Positions 3,637 through 13,213 of a stretch of 28,047 bases of DNA are shown here, piece by piece. Numbering within the stretch: position 1 is the stretch's first letter; each line of letters starts with the position of its first letter. The DNA comes from an uncultured Methanotrichaceae archaeon (lineage in GTDB: Archaea; Halobacteriota; Methanosarcinia; Methanotrichales; Methanotrichaceae): positions 1 to 28,047 of the forward strand of contig CAZKWM010000002.1 of NCBI GenBank assembly GCA_964556405.1, in the 5' to 3' direction. Below the pieces are notes generated by a model. That model saw only the letters and a list, made by a program, of their open reading frames with translations. It ran no database searches and was not told the DNA's origin. The position numbers were made by a program, and so were the translations under genes.

Positions 3637-4866
3637 ATGAGGCTGAGGTCGTGCTTGAAGAGGTACAGGGGCGACACCCACAGGGCCCTCTCTCCCGAGG
3701 AGACCCTGGCGAAGGTGGAGCCCAAGATGCCCGCGGCAGGCATCACCAGGGTGGCGGATATAACCAACCTTGATAGAGTAGGAATTCCCGTCTTTTCATC
3801 CATAAGGCCCATGGCCGACAGGGGGGCCGTCTCTGTCTACAACGGCAAAGGGGCGTCTCCAGTGGAGGCCCGGGTCTCCGCCATGATGGAGGGGATAGAG
3901 AGGTACTCCTCCGAGGTGAGGGACAGGCATCTTACCGTTGCTAGGTACTCGGGCCTTTGCCAGAGCGAGAATGCCTTGGATCCTTCAGAGCTCATCCTCC
4001 CGGTAGGGGCCGACCCCAACTCCGATATTCCCTGGATCCTGGGCCAGGATATACTGAACGATGAGGAGATAATGGTGCCTGCCAACGCCGTCTTCCATCC
4101 CCTGACTGAGGACTATCGGAGGCTTTTTAGGACGAACACAAACGGCCTGGCCTCAGGAAATGAGATGGAGGAGGCGGTCTTCCACGGACTGGCTGAGGTG
4201 GTGGAGAGGGATGCCTGGGCCCTAGTAGAGGCCAAGCGGGACACAGGGCCCGTGATAAGGAACGTAACAGATAGCATCGCCCTTGGACTCCTGGATAAGT
4301 TTGCTACGGCTGATGTAGCAGTCCACTTGAAGGACATCACCAGCGACATAGGCATACCCACCTGCGCCGCTTCTTCAGATGATGTCAAGCTTAAAGACCC
4401 CATCCTCCTCACCAACGGCATGGGAACACACGTCAGCAGCAGGATCGCAGTCCTGAGAGCCTTGACTGAGGTAGCCCAGAGCCGTCTCACCCAGATCCAC
4501 GGGGCCAGGGAGGACACCGTCAGCGCCGAGATGAAGCGTCAGATAGGCTACGAGAGGATGAAGCGCATCAATAAGCACTGGTTTGATGAATCCAGGGAAG
4601 AGGACTTCTCAGCCCTGCCGAGCTTCGAGAGCGACGACTTCCTGGAGGACGTGAGGTACATCACCAGGAAACTGGAGGAGGCAGGCCTGGAGAGGGTCAT
4701 CGTTGTGAACCTGACCAGGAAGGAGATAGGCGTGCCCGTGGTCAGGGTGATAGTCCCAGGCCTGGAAATGTCTGCGGTGGACCCGGAGCGGGTTGGAAGG
4801 AGGCATCTCAATGCCAGGAAAGCCAAGGGCCGTCATCTTCTTGGGGCCAAGCCTGCAGCTAGATGA
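3637..4866 (+). CDS. ycaO: YcaO-family thioamide synthetase (methanogenesis marker protein 1)
   Basis: GITRVADITNLDRVGIPV, YNGKG, EGIERYS, TNTNGLASGN..EEA..HGL.EVVERDA and PVVRVIVPGLE; RBS-like AGGTGG upstream. Confidence 0.95.
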   Translation: MRLRSCLKRYRGDTHRALSPEETLAKVEPKMPAAGITRVADITNLDRVGIPVFSSIRPMADRGAVSVYNGKGASPVEARVSAMMEGIERYSSEVRDRHLTVARYSGLCQSENALDPSELILPVGADPNSDIPWILGQDILNDEEIMVPANAVFHPLTEDYRRLFRTNTNGLASGNEMEEAVFHGLAEVVERDAWALVEAKRDTGPVIRNVTDSIALGLLDKFATADVAVHLKDITSDIGIPTCAASSDDVKLKDPILLTNGMGTHVSSRIAVLRALTEVAQSRLTQIHGAREDTVSAEMKRQIGYERMKRINKHWFDESREEDFSALPSFESDDFLEDVRYITRKLEEAGLERVIVVNLTRKEIGVPVVRVIVPGLEMSAVDPERVGRRHLNARKAKGRHLLGAKPAAR

Positions 4867-5485
4867 GGCTGAAAAGATCCTGGGCCTTGGGGACGGGGCC
4901 GAGTTCAGGCCTCCTGCCAAGAGAGGCGACATCTTCAAAGCAGCCGAGGATGGAGCCGAGTTGATCTGCCTCATAGACGGGTTCTTCTTCCAGGACTGCT
5001 CCGTGGCCCACAAGGAGATTCTGTATGCCTTGGAGCATGGGGTAAAGGTAATTGGGGCCTCTAGCATGGGCGCTCTGAGGGCTTCGGAGATGGATGTCTA
5101 CGGCATGGAGGGCGCGGGGGAGATTTATCAGGCTTATAAAAATGGAGCGCTTGAGTCGGATGACGAGGTGGCATTAACCTTTGATCCCTACACCTTTACG
5201 CCTCAGTCCGAGCCCCTGGTGAACGTGAGGCATAGCCTTACGCTGGCAATAAAGCAGGGAGTTTTAAACCAGGAATCGGCAGAGGTCATACTGAGGGCGG
5301 CTCAATCCCTTTACTTCCCAGATAGGATCTACGACAGGATATTGAAGGCCGCCGGGACAAACGGGGTCTCCTCAGAGGCCATCGATGGGTTCAAATTGTT
5401 TCTAAAGTCTGGCGAAGGGGATCTTAAGGGTAAGGATGCCAGAAAGGCGCTAAAAAGGTCTCGGGAGATACTGGAGAATGGCTGA
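4811..5485 (+). CDS. tfuA: TfuA-like protein, YcaO partner
   Basis: VIFLGPSL, PPAKRGDI, IDGFFFQDCSVAHKEI, GASSMGALRASE and SDDEVA. Probable start is the ATG at 4811, which overlaps the ycaO 3' end by 56 nt. Confidence 0.93.
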   Translation: MPGKPRAVIFLGPSLQLDEAEKILGLGDGAEFRPPAKRGDIFKAAEDGAELICLIDGFFFQDCSVAHKEILYALEHGVKVIGASSMGALRASEMDVYGMEGAGEIYQAYKNGALESDDEVALTFDPYTFTPQSEPLVNVRHSLTLAIKQGVLNQESAEVILRAAQSLYFPDRIYDRILKAAGTNGVSSEAIDGFKLFLKSGEGDLKGKDARKALKRSREILENG

Positions 5486-5590
5486 AGTCCTGTATCCGAT
5501 TATGATATAGTCCTTTCGTACTTTTTCACACGGTAATTATTTCTAAGACTTTTCAAAGACATCTTTTGTTAGGGCATCAGTATGCTATCG

Positions 5591-5639
5591 ATAACTCTCT
5601 TAGTTATATCAAAAAAACTTATTACCAAGCCTGGTAATA
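5591..5639. promoter_or_regulatory. Promoter region of katE with two inverted repeats
   Basis: ATAACT-N5-AGTTAT (5591-5607) and TATTACCA-agcc-TGGTAATA (5620-5639) flank an A-run/CTTATTA BRE-TATA-like element. Confidence 0.4.
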
Positions 5640-6553
5640 TATCTTCTGAAGTTGTTGAGGTCAAACATACCGTAAAACCCATCCCTTAAGCCTTCTTGGC
5701 TCTGTTCAATCTTCCAATCAGATTTAGCAGTTTACATAACGAGTTTAGCTGTAATAGAGGTATCTGTAAATGAACGACCGCAATGAATCGAAGCCAGTAG
5801 ATAAGAACCGCAAGGACCAGCAGCTCGATTATTATACGGAGCACCCTGAGGAAACACAGCTTACCACCAATCAGGGCGTAAAGGTCAGCCGCACCGATGA
5901 TTCCCTCAAGGCCGGTCTAAGGGGCCCACCCCTCATGGAGAATTCTCATTTCAGGGAAACGATAACCCATTTCGACCATGAGAGAATTCCTGAGAGGGTG
6001 GTTCATGCCATGGGAACGGGTGCTTTTGGCTACTTCGAGTGCCTTAAAGCCCATGGGCGAATATACGGCAGCCAAGTTCCTTTAGGAGGTGGGAAAGAGG
6101 ACCCCAGTCTTTGTGCGGTTCTCCACGCCAGCTTCAGGGGATCGGCGGATACGGTTAGGGACGTGAGGGACTTTGCCACCAAGTTCTACACCGAGGAGCT
6201 CATATCTCCCAGGAAGATTGGAAGGCTGGTCCTGAACAAGACGCATGAAAACTTCTTCGCCGAGGTAGAACAGGTCGCCTTCTGTCCTGGAAACGTGGTG
6301 AAGGGCATAGACTTCACCAATGATCCCTTGCTTCAGGCCAGGCTCTTCTCCTACATAGACACCCAGATAGGCCGCCTTGGAGGCCCCAATTTCCACGAGA
6401 TACTCGTCAACAGGCCCATCGCCCCCGCCCACAACAACCAGAGGGACGCCATGCACAGGATGATGATCAACACCAGCAAGACCAGTTACTTCCCCAACTG
6501 CCTCGGCAGCAACTATCCGATGTCAACATCCTGGGATCAGGACGGCTACACCC

Positions 6554-6579
6554 ACTACATGGAGACACTACATGGAGAC
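6554..6579 (+). repeat. Perfect 13-bp tandem duplication ACTACATGGAGAC x2
   Basis: Read directly at 6554-6566 and 6567-6579; it frameshifts katE. Confidence 0.95.
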
Positions 6580-6733
6580 GGTGGAGGGAAGGAAGGTCCG
6601 GGAGAGGAGCGTAGAAGTTCAAGGATTTCTTCAGCCAGGCCAGCCTTTTCTTGAACAGCATGGCCGACTTCGAGAAGCTTCACATCATCAGAGCCTTCCG
6701 CTTCGAGGTAGGCAAGGTGGAGAGCAAGGAGGT

Positions 6734-7833: not shown

Positions 7834-8340
7834 ATGAAACTGAAGATAATGATCACTGGCCACAAGGTCCATGACGTAGGCTACAGATACCACCTGCTAG
7901 GCTTGGCTAGAAGCAGCAAGCTGAAAGGATTCGATGCCGAAAATCAGATAGCGGATGTAAAGCAACATGTCGAAGTCCTGGTGGAGGGCGGTGATGCGGC
8001 GATCAGAAAATTTGGGGATATCATCCAGATCTTCAGGACTCCAGGCGCTGAGATATCAGATATTTCCTTATCCTCCTATAAGAAATGGGCAATGAAGTTA
8101 GCGGAATACAGTGGCTGGTGTACCAATATCCAGCTAAATATGGGCATACAGGCTATCTTAGATAGCAATAAGATCATAGAGCGTGTGGATAGCTGCCAAG
8201 AAGATACCATCAAGGCAGTGCAGGAAAATTGGGCCTTCTTTGCCTTCTACTCAACCATGCTCATCCTTATGGCCTTTATTGCCTTTGCAATCATTTTTAC
8301 GGCTATAGGCACAGATTTTGACCTTGATTTCGCCAGATAG
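7834..8340 (+). CDS. Acylphosphatase-like domain protein with a C-terminal extension
   Basis: ITGHKVHDVGYR resembles the acylphosphatase V.GVGFR motif, with a downstream Asn (DAEN). The start was taken at ATG 7834. The C-terminus ends in a hydrophobic stretch. Confidence 0.7.
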   Translation: MKLKIMITGHKVHDVGYRYHLLGLARSSKLKGFDAENQIADVKQHVEVLVEGGDAAIRKFGDIIQIFRTPGAEISDISLSSYKKWAMKLAEYSGWCTNIQLNMGIQAILDSNKIIERVDSCQEDTIKAVQENWAFFAFYSTMLILMAFIAFAIIFTAIGTDFDLDFAR

Positions 8341-8404
8341 GAGGCTCGGAGGACCTCCCTGCCCCAGGGAAAAGGGCTTTAACCAGGCCATAGATCTCAT
8401 AATT

Positions 8405-9667
8405 ATGAGCTTTAGGGGTTTCCTGGAGGAGTTGAGATCTAAGGCCCTTTTAGAGGAGGTGCACAATGCCGCCTCTTCCAATTTAGAGGTAGCCCAGGTG
8501 TCCTGGAAGGCAAGGCCCATCCTTTTTCACGACGTAGATGGCCAAAAAAAGTGCTGCCTTAACATAATTGGCACCAGACACCTCCTGGCCATGGCTCTGG
8601 GGGTCGAGGCTACCAAACTGACCAGGTACCTGGCGGGCATCAGCTACCAGGGCCAGGTTGTAGAGGTGGAGTCATCGCCCGTCCAGGAGATAGAAGGGAT
8701 GCCAGATCTCTCAAGGCTTCCCATACTGACTTACTTCCAGGGCGACGGAGGGCCGTACATCACCGCGGGAGTGGTGACGACCAGCTACCAGGGCCACCTC
8801 AACGCCTGCGTTCACAGGCTCCTGGTCCTGGGAAAGGACAGGCTAGCGGCAAGGCTCGTGCCCGGCAGGCACACCCACCAGCTCTACCAGAAGGCCATGG
8901 AGGCGGGCGAGGAATTGCCCATAGCAATATCCATAGGCGTAGATCCTGCGATCCTCATAGCCGCCAGCACCAGGGTGCCTCCGGAGATGGAGTACCAGTA
9001 CGCAAGCGCCCTCAGAGGAGGTCCTGTGGAGGTCGTGCGTCTAGAGAACGACGTTCCAGTGCCACACGCGGAAGTCGTCCTGGAGGGGTACATCACCACC
9101 GAGAGATCTGATGAAGGCCCCTTCGTGGACATCACCGGCACCCGGGACCTGGTGAGAAAGGAGCCCGTCATCCGCCTGACCAAGATGATGACCAGAGAGG
9201 ACCCCATCTACCACGGCATAATGCCAGCGGGCGGAGAGCACAAGATGCTCATGGGAGTGCCCTACGAGCCCCTCATCTTCAGGGAGGCCTCCAAGGTAGC
9301 CAGGATCAAAGACGTCATATTAACTGATGGGGGGTGCAATTACTTCCATGCCGTGGTGCAGATAGAGAAAAAGTCCGAGGATGAGCCGAGAAAGGTCATA
9401 GAGGCTGCCATTAAAGCCCACGGATCTTTGAAGCACGTGCTGGTAGTGGATGAGGACATCGACATCTACGATCCCAGGGACCTGGAGTACGCAGTTGCCA
9501 CCAGGGTTAGAGCTGATGAAGATGCCATACTGTACCCCGGAGTCCGGGGTAGCACTCTTGATCCAAGGAGCGTTAACGGCATTACCACAAAGGTGGGATT
9601 GGACGCCACAGCCAAGCTCGACAAGCTCTGGAAGTTCCAGAGGGTGATGCCCGGAGGTAGGCCTTAA
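8405..9667 (+). CDS. ubiD: UbiD-family prFMN-dependent decarboxylase (likely the archaeal mevalonate-pathway anhydromevalonate-phosphate decarboxylase)
   Basis: DGGPYITAG, EGPFVDITG, HLKHV-like GSLKHVLVVDEDIDI and GSTLDP...TTKVGLDAT; about 420 aa from ATG 8405. The pathway assignment is inferred from knowledge of Methanosarcinales UbiD homologues. Confidence 0.88.
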   Translation: MSFRGFLEELRSKALLEEVHNAASSNLEVAQVSWKARPILFHDVDGQKKCCLNIIGTRHLLAMALGVEATKLTRYLAGISYQGQVVEVESSPVQEIEGMPDLSRLPILTYFQGDGGPYITAGVVTTSYQGHLNACVHRLLVLGKDRLAARLVPGRHTHQLYQKAMEAGEELPIAISIGVDPAILIAASTRVPPEMEYQYASALRGGPVEVVRLENDVPVPHAEVVLEGYITTERSDEGPFVDITGTRDLVRKEPVIRLTKMMTREDPIYHGIMPAGGEHKMLMGVPYEPLIFREASKVARIKDVILTDGGCNYFHAVVQIEKKSEDEPRKVIEAAIKAHGSLKHVLVVDEDIDIYDPRDLEYAVATRVRADEDAILYPGVRGSTLDPRSVNGITTKVGLDATAKLDKLWKFQRVMPGGRP

Positions 9668-10309: not shown

Positions 10310-11251
10310 TATACCCTTATCCTTTGGGTGCTGAATCCCATAATGCACTACATATTCTTCATGTGGGGGCAGATAGATATAATCCCCTCATTCTTCACTG
10401 CCATGGCCACGTAATGTGCCAAAAAGGGCCTAGATGAGGGCCCTCTAAATCCTTCATTAAATTGAGCAAACTCCTTAGAATCTTCTTTGAATCAGAGCAA
10501 GGCCTTATCTCTGCTCGCCCTGGGCCTGGGCGACTGCTTCAAAAAATTCCAGCTTTTCCTCCTTCCCATCTTCGCTATGGGACTTGAGGGGAACCACATA
10601 TCAAATCTCATAAAGCTGATGGTAATAGGGTCCTTTCCTTTCGTCGCCATCATGCTCCTCTTTCTAGTCACTGAGGCCCTCCGCACGACGGCCCTCATTT
10701 CGAATCAGAACCAGAGAATTTTCTACCTTTCGTTGGATGTGGCACCAAACCACAGTGCTTATACCTTCCTCTTAGGCCTCTCTGCTTCCTACTTTTACGT
10801 GATGTACTTGAGCCAGGAGAGATCCTTCGATAGCATATGAAAGCATTCTTTAGCGGTTTTTGCCATCTTCTACTCCACTACGTTCTGGCATCCTCAGTGG
10901 TATCTCTGGTCCCTCCCCTTCCTGGTCCTTGCTATATCTAAAGATAGGAGGCTAATGGTCATCCATATGCTTATAGTAGCCTCCGTCTTCGCCTACATCC
11001 AGGAATGGGGTAATCCTCTTACTGCGGTTCTCTTTTACTCAGCCTCCCCCATCTTTAGAGATTTTCCATGGATCCTGGAGATAATACCCGGGCATACGAA
11101 AGTCCTGGGAGTAGTGGCCTACACCGGCTTCATAGTCTTATCCCTGGGCATGATCTTACCTGTATCTTTAAGGGAGACGAAGGCCTGGAGAACGATAAAA
11201 GATCCCTACCTGAGGAGAGGTCTTCGCTGGATAAAAGGCCGATATTTATAG
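10310..11251 (+). pseudogene. GT-C fold (GT87/DUF2029-like) polytopic glycosyltransferase, fragmented
   Basis: LWVLNPIMHYIFFMWGQIDIIPSFF and FWHPQWYLWSLPFL motifs plus many hydrophobic segments, interrupted by stops and frameshifts; the N-terminus is missing. Confidence 0.68.
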
Positions 11252-11484
11252 TACTGGAGCTGTCTGCACCCTTGAGGATATTCTTTGCTATGATGGCTGC
11301 ATCATTTCTTATCGACTGCAGCAGCTATTACAGCATAGAGCTGAGCGATATAAACAATCCTTTTTTACAGGCAGTAAGGGGAGATGAGATCTTCTTTGTC
11401 CTCTATGCCGTCATGCTGCTGAGCCTAATCTCCCTGGCAGTCGTAGTTCTTCTCTACGTCCTAAAGATGGAAGGAGGGTATTGA
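11227..11484 (+). CDS. Small membrane protein (start uncertain)
   Basis: Two hydrophobic segments lie in the 3' part of ORF 11068-11484. The 5' part overlaps the GT-C frame and is probably not coding. Confidence 0.4.
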   Translation: MDKRPIFIVLELSAPLRIFFAMMAASFLIDCSSYYSIELSDINNPFLQAVRGDEIFFVLYAVMLLSLISLAVVVLLYVLKMEGGY

Positions 11485-11563
11485 AATAATCTTTTACTTA
11501 AAGTTTTAATGCTAAAAAAACATAGGGTATAGGTGGAAAGCAGAAGGCGTAAGGTGGATCTTC

Positions 11564-12100
11564 GTGGCAAACGTACAGGATAATCGGTGTGCTGGTAACA
11601 TCAACAGCCTGGCCGACATCAGGATCTCCAGGAGGGATCTAGTAAGGCTGCACGATCACTTGAGCTACCTCCAGAACGGCTTAAAGGAGATGGGTACCGA
11701 TATCTCTGATATTCAGAAAAGGATTTATAAGCTCTCCAGGGACGCCGATAGATTGGGAACCCTCTTCGACTCCCTCTTCGGGGATCAGATAAGCTCAGTG
11801 ATAGGCGGGGGAACGATCATCTCTTCACCATGTCTCTCGGCCGAGGAGAAGCTTTTGGATGCCATGGACTCGGAGCTCATAACCCTCGGGCCGGACAGGC
11901 AAACCTGGAAGCAGATGCTCTCAACCATCGATATAATAAGGCGGGTAGAAGAGGAGTTTGGTGGGATTGCGCCTAGAGAGGAGGTTTTGGCCCAAACGGC
12001 CGAGATCCATATCAGTTCAGATAAGCTCGATCAGATTCTAAATACGCTCAAGAAATCCGGAGCCCTGGCTGAGTCCGAAGATGCCGTCAGGCTCATCTGA
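11564..12100 (+). CDS. Coiled-coil protein with an MCM-C-terminal-like winged-helix domain
   Basis: Intact 178 aa with a GTG start after AGGTGG. The N-terminus has a heptad pattern. The C-terminal IDIIRRVEEEFGGIAPREEVLAQ...SDKLDQILNTLKKSG...VRLI resembles archaeal MCM C-termini. Confidence 0.7.
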   Translation: MANVQDNRCAGNINSLADIRISRRDLVRLHDHLSYLQNGLKEMGTDISDIQKRIYKLSRDADRLGTLFDSLFGDQISSVIGGGTIISSPCLSAEEKLLDAMDSELITLGPDRQTWKQMLSTIDIIRRVEEEFGGIAPREEVLAQTAEIHISSDKLDQILNTLKKSGALAESEDAVRLI

Positions 12101-12110
12101 TTTTTTCTTT
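12101..12110 (+). terminator. Oligo-T archaeal terminator
   Basis: TTTTTTCTTT directly follows the stop at 12100. Confidence 0.5.
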
Positions 12111-12259
12111 ATCCTCTGGCGCTGAATGGGCGAAACAATAAACGCCAATTATAAAGGTACAATCGCGCCAAGAAGCTCCCTTAATATCGGTGATTGATCA
12201 ATTCATCCCATGGAATCCATTTATGCTTTTGTGACTCTGTGGTTTTCCTTTGTATTCCA

Positions 12260-12281
12260 ATATATATATATATATATATAT
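12260..12281. repeat. (AT)11 microsatellite
   Basis: Perfect alternating A/T run, read directly. Confidence 0.95.
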
Positions 12282-12291
12282 TCTTGAACTC

Positions 12292-12466
12292 TCAGATCTC
12301 CAGGTACATGCGCACGCTGTATAGAGTGGCCAGCACCAGCACCAGGCCAGCCCCCAGAGCCAAAAGCTGGAATACCAGATCGCTCAACCCGATCGCCTCC
12401 CGGATAACATATCTTTTAAATATACCTTTTAAAGGAATCGCCTGGTAACTCCAGCTTTAGCATCAT
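12292..12466 (-). pseudogene. Small single-TM membrane protein frameshifted by a 13-bp duplication
   Basis: MMLKLELPGDSFKRY joins VIREAIGLSDLVFQLLALGAGLVLVLATLYSVRMYLEI* if the imperfect repeat at 12408-12420/12421-12433 is collapsed. Confidence 0.45.
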
Positions 12467-13030
12467 CAGCTTTGACACTATAATTCCTGATCACATCACA
12501 TGGTCCCAGGACCTGGGCCGACCGAACCTCGGTGATGATGGCCATCATCCTCACCTTGCCCTCAAAGTCTTCCCTGATCCTGGGCCCCCCATATCCCATT
12601 GGCTTTCTCATCCAGCTCCTGGGTCAGTGCCCCGGCCAGGGCAGCGGCGCCCTTGAGGGTGGGGTCAAGCCCTCCGATTATGTGGAGAAGGCATCCCTTA
12701 GTGCCCCCTGTAGTCGATGTCCAGAAGAGGATTTTGCTTGATAGCCGAGCGAACGATCTCCTCAGGAGGCTCATACAAACAGCCCTCCCCGACTATCATA
12801 AAGGAGGGGCCTCCCGAGCTCATGATGGCCCTCACATAGGCGTAGTCCAGGTTGATGATGGAGGGCACGGTTATGGTCTCCATAACCCCTTTTATGATCC
12901 CGGTTATGAGCTGATCCACCACCGAGAAGGCGTGCTCCACGGGGAGGTTCGGCACCAGATCCAAGAGCCTGTTGTTATCTATGACGAGGCGGGTGTCGGC
13001 CTCGGCCATTGCCAGGTGCCGGCAGCCGGT
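12429..13030 (-). pseudogene. ftsZ: FtsZ (FtsZ2-type) C-terminal half; 5' half lost, frameshifted
   Basis: EADT.LVIDNNRLLDLVPNLP, ITVPSIINLDYAYVRAIM, NPLLDIDYRG, GCLLHIIGG and IWGARIREDFEGKVRMMAIIT are spread across three frames. The GGGTG signature region is missing. Confidence 0.9.
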
Positions 13031-13034
13031 GTTG

Positions 13035-13070
13035 ATTCCAATCCCCAATGGGTTTTCGATAACTGTTGGC
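13035..13070 (+). CRISPR. Single putative type I-D-like CRISPR repeat (no array)
   Basis: ATTCCAATCCCCAATGGGTTTTCGATAACTGTTGGC resembles GTTTCAATCCC-N4-GGGTTTTC type I-D repeats of methanogens and haloarchaea (recalled from memory). No second copy was found in the window. Confidence 0.45.
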
Positions 13071-13120
13071 GTCAACTACCCCGCCCTAAAGGCCGGGGAC
13101 CCCGGCGCTGACTGTTAAGT
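13071..13120. mobile_element. IS200/IS605-family end (omega-RNA/HEARO-type terminal hairpin), no transposase or nuclease ORF
   Basis: GTCAACTACCCCGCCCTAAAGGCCGGGG has a TAAA-loop hairpin, and GTCAAC can pair imperfectly with GCTGAC at 13107-13112. On the minus strand it reads CTTTAGGGCGGGGTAGTTGAC, the typical IS605/IS1341 terminus. Confidence 0.7.
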
Positions 13121-13213
13121 TGATTAAAGAATGTTTGGAATTGGAAGAGTACGAAATGTTGTATGCTTGCGCAATTCTGAAGCATCATGATGCAAAAATG
13201 AAGAGGAAGTCTG

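Follow-up and report, generated by a model that had tools for sequence, protein, structure and literature searches.

Archaeal MCM helicases end in a C-terminal domain that consists of a linker and a truncated winged helix, from which the wings are absent (PMC4357721). In the MCM of Sulfolobus solfataricus (Sso), the linker and winged helix together lower the ATPase activity 3-5 fold, an effect that depends critically on the linker and on the beginning of helix 1, and DNA binding is independent of this domain (PMC4357721). When the helicase is recruited in Sulfolobus, the MCM C-terminal winged helix contacts Orc1-1 bound to ORB (PMC12141716); the contact with Orc1/Cdc6, which an initial annotation of the DNA studied here had given as background, is in the literature for this genus.

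Here, we describe a small protein, X (also P0001), that carries such a tail outside of any helicase. X is encoded at 11564-12100 (+) of the window, by which we mean the entire stretch of DNA that was analyzed, a whole contig of 28 kb (28,047 nucleotides; contig C2). The contig belongs to a 2.3-Mb metagenome-assembled Methanotrichaceae genome (303 contigs, 88% complete). Throughout, genera are labeled g1, g2, and so on, and genomes are labeled from G000 upward; g1 is the genus of the window and G000 is its genome.

An intact gene between two broken neighbors

The coding sequence of X is complete, reading from a GTG start to a TGA stop over 178 amino acids, and the exact coordinates of the intact, stand-alone reading frame proposed in the initial annotation were borne out. 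No open reading frame longer than 48 amino acids overlaps it on the window, and orthologs of the same length, with 88% identity, are found in two further assemblies of g1. Four nucleotides before the GTG, a Shine-Dalgarno-like GGTGGAT (11553-11559, +), unchanged in both of these assemblies, corresponds to the ribosome-binding site that had been claimed and, by its sequence, may function as one. Further upstream lies a TATA-like, A/T-rich box, AAAGTTTTAATG (11500-11511, +), placed 53-64 nucleotides before the start and directly past the stop codon of the preceding open reading frame; it is a putative promoter element. The orthologs in g5 and g15 (loci L022, L023, and L024) share a conserved CCGAAAG(C/T)TAGATCAA ~25-45 nucleotides before the start codon, directly past the stop of the UbiD gene discussed below, where g1 carries AAAGTTTTAATG instead; this element may be a promoter or an operator. 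Immediately 3' of the X stop codon, a T6CT3 run (12101-12110, +) represents a candidate archaeal oligo-T terminator, in line with the T-rich terminator described earlier, and one RNA-library contig stops within it, at 12106, which is a weak hint only. Judging by these signals, X probably has its own promoter and oligo-T terminator. A low-complexity AT repeat (12252-12290) lies further downstream, before the ftsZ remnant, and neither Rfam nor tRNA scanning of the window gave any match.

The conserved upstream neighbor of X is a gene encoding a UbiD-family decarboxylase (8318-9667, +; Pfam UbiD_N, UbiD, and UbiD_C). At six loci from five other genera, X is found ~70-230 bp downstream of this gene and on the same strand. 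In the window, a membrane-protein gene (10487-11484, +) is inserted between the two and is broken into three open reading frames in different frames. The insertion is seen in the window's genus only, with two open reading frames in the related contig L005, and its sole match is a weak one to DUF401. On the other side of X, and convergent with it, tblastn searches with intact Methanotrichaceae FtsZ revealed a pseudogene remnant (12492-13000, -), in which residues 192-359 of ~374 are left, spread over frames -3, -1, and -2. The same ftsZ is fragmentary in other g1 assemblies (L005, L006, and L027) and intact in other genera. The decayed regions reported on both sides of X were thus recovered as two broken genes, for the membrane protein upstream and for FtsZ downstream.

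Among the loci whose far flank was checked, a convergent ftsZ stands next to X in g1, g3, and g14, and the position of X on the chromosome, UbiD-X-(convergent ftsZ), is fixed. Three genomes that lack X (G016, G058, and G022) have an intact ftsZ directly convergent with UbiD at a distance of 40-256 bp, and no remnant of X was detected between the two genes at E < 1. Given this fixed synteny with UbiD and ftsZ, X is a chromosomal rather than a mobile gene, and nothing in our analysis pointed to an origin from a mobile element. X is not located near mcm, orc1/cdc6, the replication origin, or the origin-adjacent initiator; in G019, for example, it lies 110 kb from mcm, and orc1 is on another contig. 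Elsewhere on the window, a catalase gene (4793-6654, +) is also broken: its 294-amino-acid open reading frame at 5770-6654, which is preceded by a separate one, has two stretches of similarity to the Catalase family, the better of which is at the C-terminal end of the model (positions 281-381 of 383).

X is a real gene that is under purifying selection while both of its neighbors are broken. Within the genus, its dN/dS is 0.22-0.25 (about 0.23), and that of the half not related to MCM is 0.16-0.20; family alignments further show that both halves are conserved between genera. Contigs from wetland metatranscriptomes of three studies cover positions 11679-12106 with 99-100% identity (0-3 differences), and a fourth RNA library, from sediment, contains a relative at 93%. 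As the runs were picked using X itself, and contigs from RNA libraries are no proof of transcription, we consider this a weak positive. For the same reason, the absence of cover by these contigs at 10400-11360 and 12107-13200 is uninformative. The zero-difference contigs do show that the assembly is accurate at this place.

The C-terminal module is an MCM tail by sequence

Residues 100-178 of X (11861-12097, +) form an MCM-derived module, comprising a linker motif (ITLG..S..T) and a truncated winged helix. The likeness to MCM that had been noted for the last ~60 amino acids was found by sequence, profile, and fold. The Pfam model MCM_WH_arc (PF21120) matches residues 120-170 with 27.3 bits (E 3.8e-6), passing the gathering cutoff of 26.1 bits, and 10 of 11 X-family members match it at E <= 1. 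When scanned singly, orthologs score below the cutoff (23.8 and 16.7 bits) or yield no match at E 0.01, so the family, taken together, is borderline for this model. The NCBIfam model of full-length MCM aligns only through its last 74 positions (603-676 of 682), which cover residues 100-173 of X. Similarly, the top matches in a sequence search of the PDB were 2ma3 and 2m45, both solved C-terminal domains of archaeal MCM. Comparing the C-terminal half of X with 21 Methanotrichaceae MCM C-termini using hhalign gave an E of 2.9e-22 and a probability of 99.5 over 78 columns.

Searches in the opposite direction gave the same picture. The X-family profile retrieved MCM C-termini in ~75 Methanotrichaceae genomes with E of 1e-10 to 4e-22, and nothing else beyond orthologs; in nearly every Methanotrichaceae genome, its positions 98-174 match a single long open frame, at the C-terminus. 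Six-frame searches of 41 and of 105 genomes, conducted with either the protein or the profile, returned orthologs and the C-termini of long frames, mostly of ~700-1,280 amino acids. All 21 long frames that we read out finish in MCM C-terminal sequence. Since these searches return orthologs of X together with MCM C-termini, the similarity between X and the MCM tail is not due to chance.

The two tails have in common the linker motif (I-T-L-G-x-S-x-x-T-R in X versus I-I-A-T-G-x-S-K-S-T-R in MCM), a G-P-A-P turn, a third helix of the form E-E-I-x-x-R-h-R-R-x-G, and a terminal hairpin. In g1, the winged helix has drifted from the family consensus, with GGIAP in place of GPAP and K in place of R in the third helix, and the X of the window's genus is the least MCM-like member of the family, with a mean identity of 29%. 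An uncharacterized archaeal family enters the comparison through its C-terminal domain, DUF5817_CT (PF22798), which matches 10 of 11 members over the third helix and the hairpin. These matches cover ~40 residues and never reach the cutoff of 29 bits, the best member scoring 24.6 bits (E 2.2e-5); the window's own X has no match in a Pfam scan at E up to 10. DUF5817_CT is probably a related small winged helix, and by hhalign the lineage's MCM tail is far closer to X.

The N-terminal half is a predicted coiled coil

Preceding this module, residues ~20-84 (11621-11815, +) form a coiled-coil region, modeled in the monomer as two long helices (residues 23-45 and 50-81). In one heptad register, 13-14 of the 19 a and d positions are L, I, V, M, or F. 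Sequence searches of the PDB and Pfam with the N-terminal half returned coiled-coil matches only, and the structural matches to this region are helical hairpins with Z about 8; relatives of the N-terminal half were not detectable in these searches. The coiled coil of the initial annotation thus finds support in the heptad pattern, with 14 of 19 a/d positions hydrophobic, and in the nature of the matches. At the beginning of the protein, family alignments reveal a conserved motif (residues ~9-31; 11588-11656, +) consisting of a single Cys, INS, and a VSRRDLVRLRD-like start of the first helix.

The MCM AAA+ model (PF00493) has no match in X at E up to 10, and neither an OB-fold nor a zinc-binding domain was found with Pfam or NCBIfam, in agreement with the absence of AAA+ and OB domains that had been claimed. 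With only 178 amino acids, X indeed has no room for either domain, and lacking both, it is not an MCM helicase. We also considered the N-terminal half as a relic of the lid of the MCM AAA+ domain. In a greedy hhalign run, the alignment grew collinearly as far as the sensor-2 helix (VSRRDLVRL versus VTARQLEAL). This extension was insignificant once the N-terminal half was tested alone (p 0.058, which does not surpass the mismatched controls at p 0.24 and 0.0034), and no MCM_lid Pfam match occurs in the X family. The lid origin is not supported.

Structural comparison with other winged helices

We modeled X with AlphaFold2 from an 11-sequence alignment. The mean pLDDT is 71 and rises to 81-88 over residues 112-178. 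Following the two coiled-coil helices and a further one at residues 93-103, the model shows a winged helix at 112-178, built of three helices (112-132, 138-147, and 152-164) and a short hairpin (strands 168-171 and 174-177), that is, a truncated winged helix.

The model was aligned to all 48,161 PDB representative chains. The first-ranking match was the Sulfolobus MCM C-terminal domain 2m45 (Z 10.0, 81 aligned residues, rmsd 5.7), followed by its Methanothermobacter counterpart 2ma3 (Z 9.7, 67 aligned residues, rmsd 3.4). The next winged helices in the same search were those of Nse1/3 (Z 8.3), Stn1 (8.2), Fur (8.2), Rpa2 (7.9), and RPA32C (7.6). In a list seeded by Foldseek, a chain of an archaeal MCM hexamer, 8x7t_B, aligned over 70 residues with Z 9.2 and rmsd 1.7. 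Foldseek itself ranked 2ma3 first in the PDB (E 0.039), with no match at E <= 0.001. An ESM Atlas feature search returned viral hypothetical clusters at best, with values of 0.80-0.81, which is the noise level by the tool's own calibration.

An RPA32/Stn1-type winged helix was considered and rejected, as it had no Pfam match at E up to 10 and reached Z 7.6-8.2 versus 9.7-10.0 for MCM. The DNA-binding domains of Fur, Mur, Zur, PerR, IscR, and CAP aligned to the model with Z 7.6-9.0; generic DNA-binding winged helices (Fur and Mur) come within about 1-2 Z units of MCM. The initial annotation had named a better fit to a generic or RPA32-type winged helix as one result that would speak against its reading; both sequence, where MCM families alone pass or rank first, and structure (Z 10.0 and 9.7 versus 7.6-8.4 for Stn1, RPA2/RPA32, Fur, and Nse) favored MCM.

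Distribution and origin of the family

Full-length orthologs of X were found by six-frame search in 14 of 105 Methanotrichaceae genomes, representing 8 of 16 genera; in the largest genus, only 3 of 59 genomes carry it. A six-frame search of 401 genomes drawn from across the phylum recovered two with full-length X, both Methanotrichaceae; the 389 genomes of this sample that belong to other families yielded none. X is also absent from all complete-looking, reference-quality genomes searched. A related-locus search with a narrower family alignment returned five loci, all titled Methanothrix or Methanotrichaceae. An exhaustive HMMER search of 1.84 billion representatives detected ~ten clusters, nearly all of 168-178 amino acids, the remainder being fragments and one false match to a coiled coil. 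Likewise, a word-indexed search of 5.8 billion proteins detected close copies and more members of 167-181 amino acids. Overall, the open frames of the family span 174-208 amino acids, and the likely proteins 168-183. The members are named in public databases as "hypothetical", not at all, or spuriously.

In a maximum-likelihood tree of the C-terminal modules, X forms one clade (82/74), which joins the MCM tails of Methanotrichaceae apart from those of Methanosarcinaceae (100/100); one row of this tree, X_G001, was mis-extracted and was left out of the reading. The X tails are on average 36% identical to Methanotrichaceae MCM (50% at most) and 28% identical to Methanosarcinaceae MCM. By these sequence comparisons, the tail of X is a diverged paralog of the lineage's own MCM linker and truncated winged helix. 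It most likely originated by partial duplication of the 3' end of the host mcm, after Methanotrichaceae and Methanosarcinaceae split, and on the simplest reading this took place in the Methanotrichaceae stem or crown. Taken jointly, we hold this identity and origin with high confidence. In a single-gene Orc1 tree, the genera bearing X all fall within the clade that excludes g6 and g9, where they are mixed with genera lacking it; one gain followed by several losses is possible.

Our literature search found no description of a stand-alone MCM winged-helix protein or of DUF5817, nor did we find a named family for a stand-alone MCM-tail protein. Since the MCM winged helix is a known module and no such stand-alone protein has been described, X is a new domain architecture made from a known domain.

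Replication genes in the same genome

In G000, MCM AAA+ matches occur on contig C53 only. The MCM frame there (C53:8192-9406; loci L003 and L004) is 969 amino acids long, and about 176 codons interrupt its AAA+ match. The length of MCM open frames varies among Methanotrichaceae, from about 700 to 1,276 amino acids, which suggests one or more inteins that only some genomes carry. The MCM tail of G000 reads N in part, precluding a full comparison with X. An Orc1/Cdc6 of the origin-adjacent type is cut by the end of its contig (C38:3-1073, -), and its last ~45 residues are found at the end of another contig (C29:15094-15216, -). A second Orc1/Cdc6 paralog is complete on C144. In finished relatives, the chromosome record opens with the gene of the origin-adjacent type.

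Possible function of X

The best explanation of the findings as a whole is that X is a real MCM-tail paralog gene, joined to a coiled coil, whose product would modulate replication via the site of the MCM tail; we put the probability of this reading at roughly 55%. The initial annotation had pictured X as an MCM mimic or adaptor that tunes replication initiation or ploidy, oligomerizing through its coiled coil. Its architecture, a coiled coil plus an MCM-type winged helix, stood up to both sequence and structural analysis, and the modulator mechanism taken by itself is a tentative proposal with less than an even chance.

According to this proposal, the coiled coil would assemble X into a dimer or a higher oligomer that shows two or more MCM-tail modules. 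X would then occupy the site normally taken by the MCM tail, via protein contact and not via DNA binding. Such a site is where X most likely works, as the protein is acidic (family pI 4.6-5.3; winged-helix net charge -4 to +1) and the MCM tail serves for protein contact rather than DNA binding. One option is a site on the origin-bound Orc1/Cdc6 loader, where X would compete with helicase recruitment or bridge it. Another is a site on the AAA+ tier of MCM, where X would act in trans on ATPase or helicase activity; trans action on the MCM ATPase is equally possible, as the linker by which the ATPase of Sso MCM is controlled is part of the copied segment. In both cases, X would modulate replication initiation or helicase activity as an accessory protein and not as a core factor, as most of Methanotrichaceae do without it. 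Any role must be dispensable, given the patchy distribution (14 of 105 genomes). This patchiness counts against a core role in replication, as do the absence of linked replication genes and the drifted winged helix of g1. A more specific version, in which X is a trans-acting decoy of the tail on ATP-bound Orc1/Cdc6 or on the MCM AAA+ tier and throttles loading or activity, is speculative, and we regard it as unlikely. When residues 92-178 of X were folded together with ATP and the cognate Orc1/Cdc6 of the origin-adjacent type, the score was 0.20, where the mark was 0.32, a value that counts neither for nor against binding.

The foremost alternative is a neofunctionalized DNA-binding regulator, either a transcription factor or a nucleoid protein, in which the winged helix would be the DNA-reading head and the coiled coil would dimerize. 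This layout of a dimerization helix and a winged helix is standard and common among dimeric regulators, the Fur, Mur, Zur, PerR, IscR, and CAP domains match the model as detailed above, and most members keep an R-L-R-R-like basic patch on the third helix. However, X as a whole is acidic, its winged helix has a net charge of only -4 to +1, no regulator family reaches the Pfam cutoff, and there is no conserved divergent target, the neighbors being UbiD on the same strand, whether X is present or not, and the convergent ftsZ. Furthermore, the parent MCM winged helix is wingless, and Sso MCM binds DNA without needing it (PMC4357721). A regulator of this kind would be a minority outcome, to which we give a low chance.

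A role in cell division or chromosome organization seems to us quite improbable. Here, X would serve as an adaptor working with the adjacent FtsZ paralog or with SMC/kleisin-type machinery, its winged helix resembling those of KITE proteins or ScpB. The convergent ftsZ beside X in g1, g3, and g14 is compatible with this role, as are a weak match to MksE (E 0.07) and the structural match to the Nse1-Nse3 winged helix (Z 8.3). Nevertheless, X in g1 is intact and under purifying selection next to an ftsZ that is decapitated and frameshifted, and genomes without X keep the UbiD-ftsZ arrangement. X and ftsZ do not form an operon, as they are convergent, and the likeness to MksE and Nse is sub-threshold or generic, compared with a specific homology to MCM. 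Finally, a dead leftover of a partial mcm duplication that is open by chance, or an annotation artifact, is strongly disfavored: the stretch does hold several pseudogenes and X is missing from most Methanotrichaceae genomes, but 14 genomes from 8 genera have the frame open at similar length, both of its halves are conserved, its dN/dS is as low as reported above, and the gene has a start context and a terminator-like run and is found in RNA-library contigs.

Comparison with known systems

Whatever the function of X, it represents a clean, datable domain capture from an essential replication gene, in a family that is unannotated in public databases: this lineage copied the tail of MCM alone onto a predicted oligomerizing stalk, as a separate gene. 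The family is narrow, dispensable, and known from metagenome-assembled genomes alone. If X competes for the contacts of the tail, it would be a regulator that evolved by partial duplication of its own target, and it would provide a natural tool to dissect helicase recruitment in archaea.

The closest described relative is the archaeal MCM C-terminal domain (2m45 of Sulfolobus solfataricus and 2ma3 of Methanothermobacter thermautotrophicus), with homology across the whole ~78-residue module. In contrast to this domain, the tail of X is free of the helicase, fused to a coiled coil, and somewhat more acidic, and it has a gene of its own, far from mcm. Licensing factors of the WhiP/Cdt1 type, found in Crenarchaeota and eukaryotes, are likewise small winged-helix proteins at origins, where they contact the Orc/MCM machinery and DNA. 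They have tandem winged-helix domains of a family other than that of MCM, and no search returned a WhiP/Cdt1 sequence match to X.

Eukaryotes and bacteria have well-known accessory and negative regulators of helicase loading, whereas such regulators are, to our knowledge, barely known in archaea. Geminin, the metazoan licensing inhibitor, binds Cdt1 through a coiled coil and has no MCM-derived domain. Its likeness to X, and that of decoy regulators in general, would be a functional analogy only, with no homology: a contact needed for helicase loading could be blocked by a small oligomer built on a coiled coil. If the decoy version of the proposal is true, X would be a counterpart in archaea of eukaryotic licensing inhibitors such as geminin, evolved independently and made from a piece of the helicase itself.
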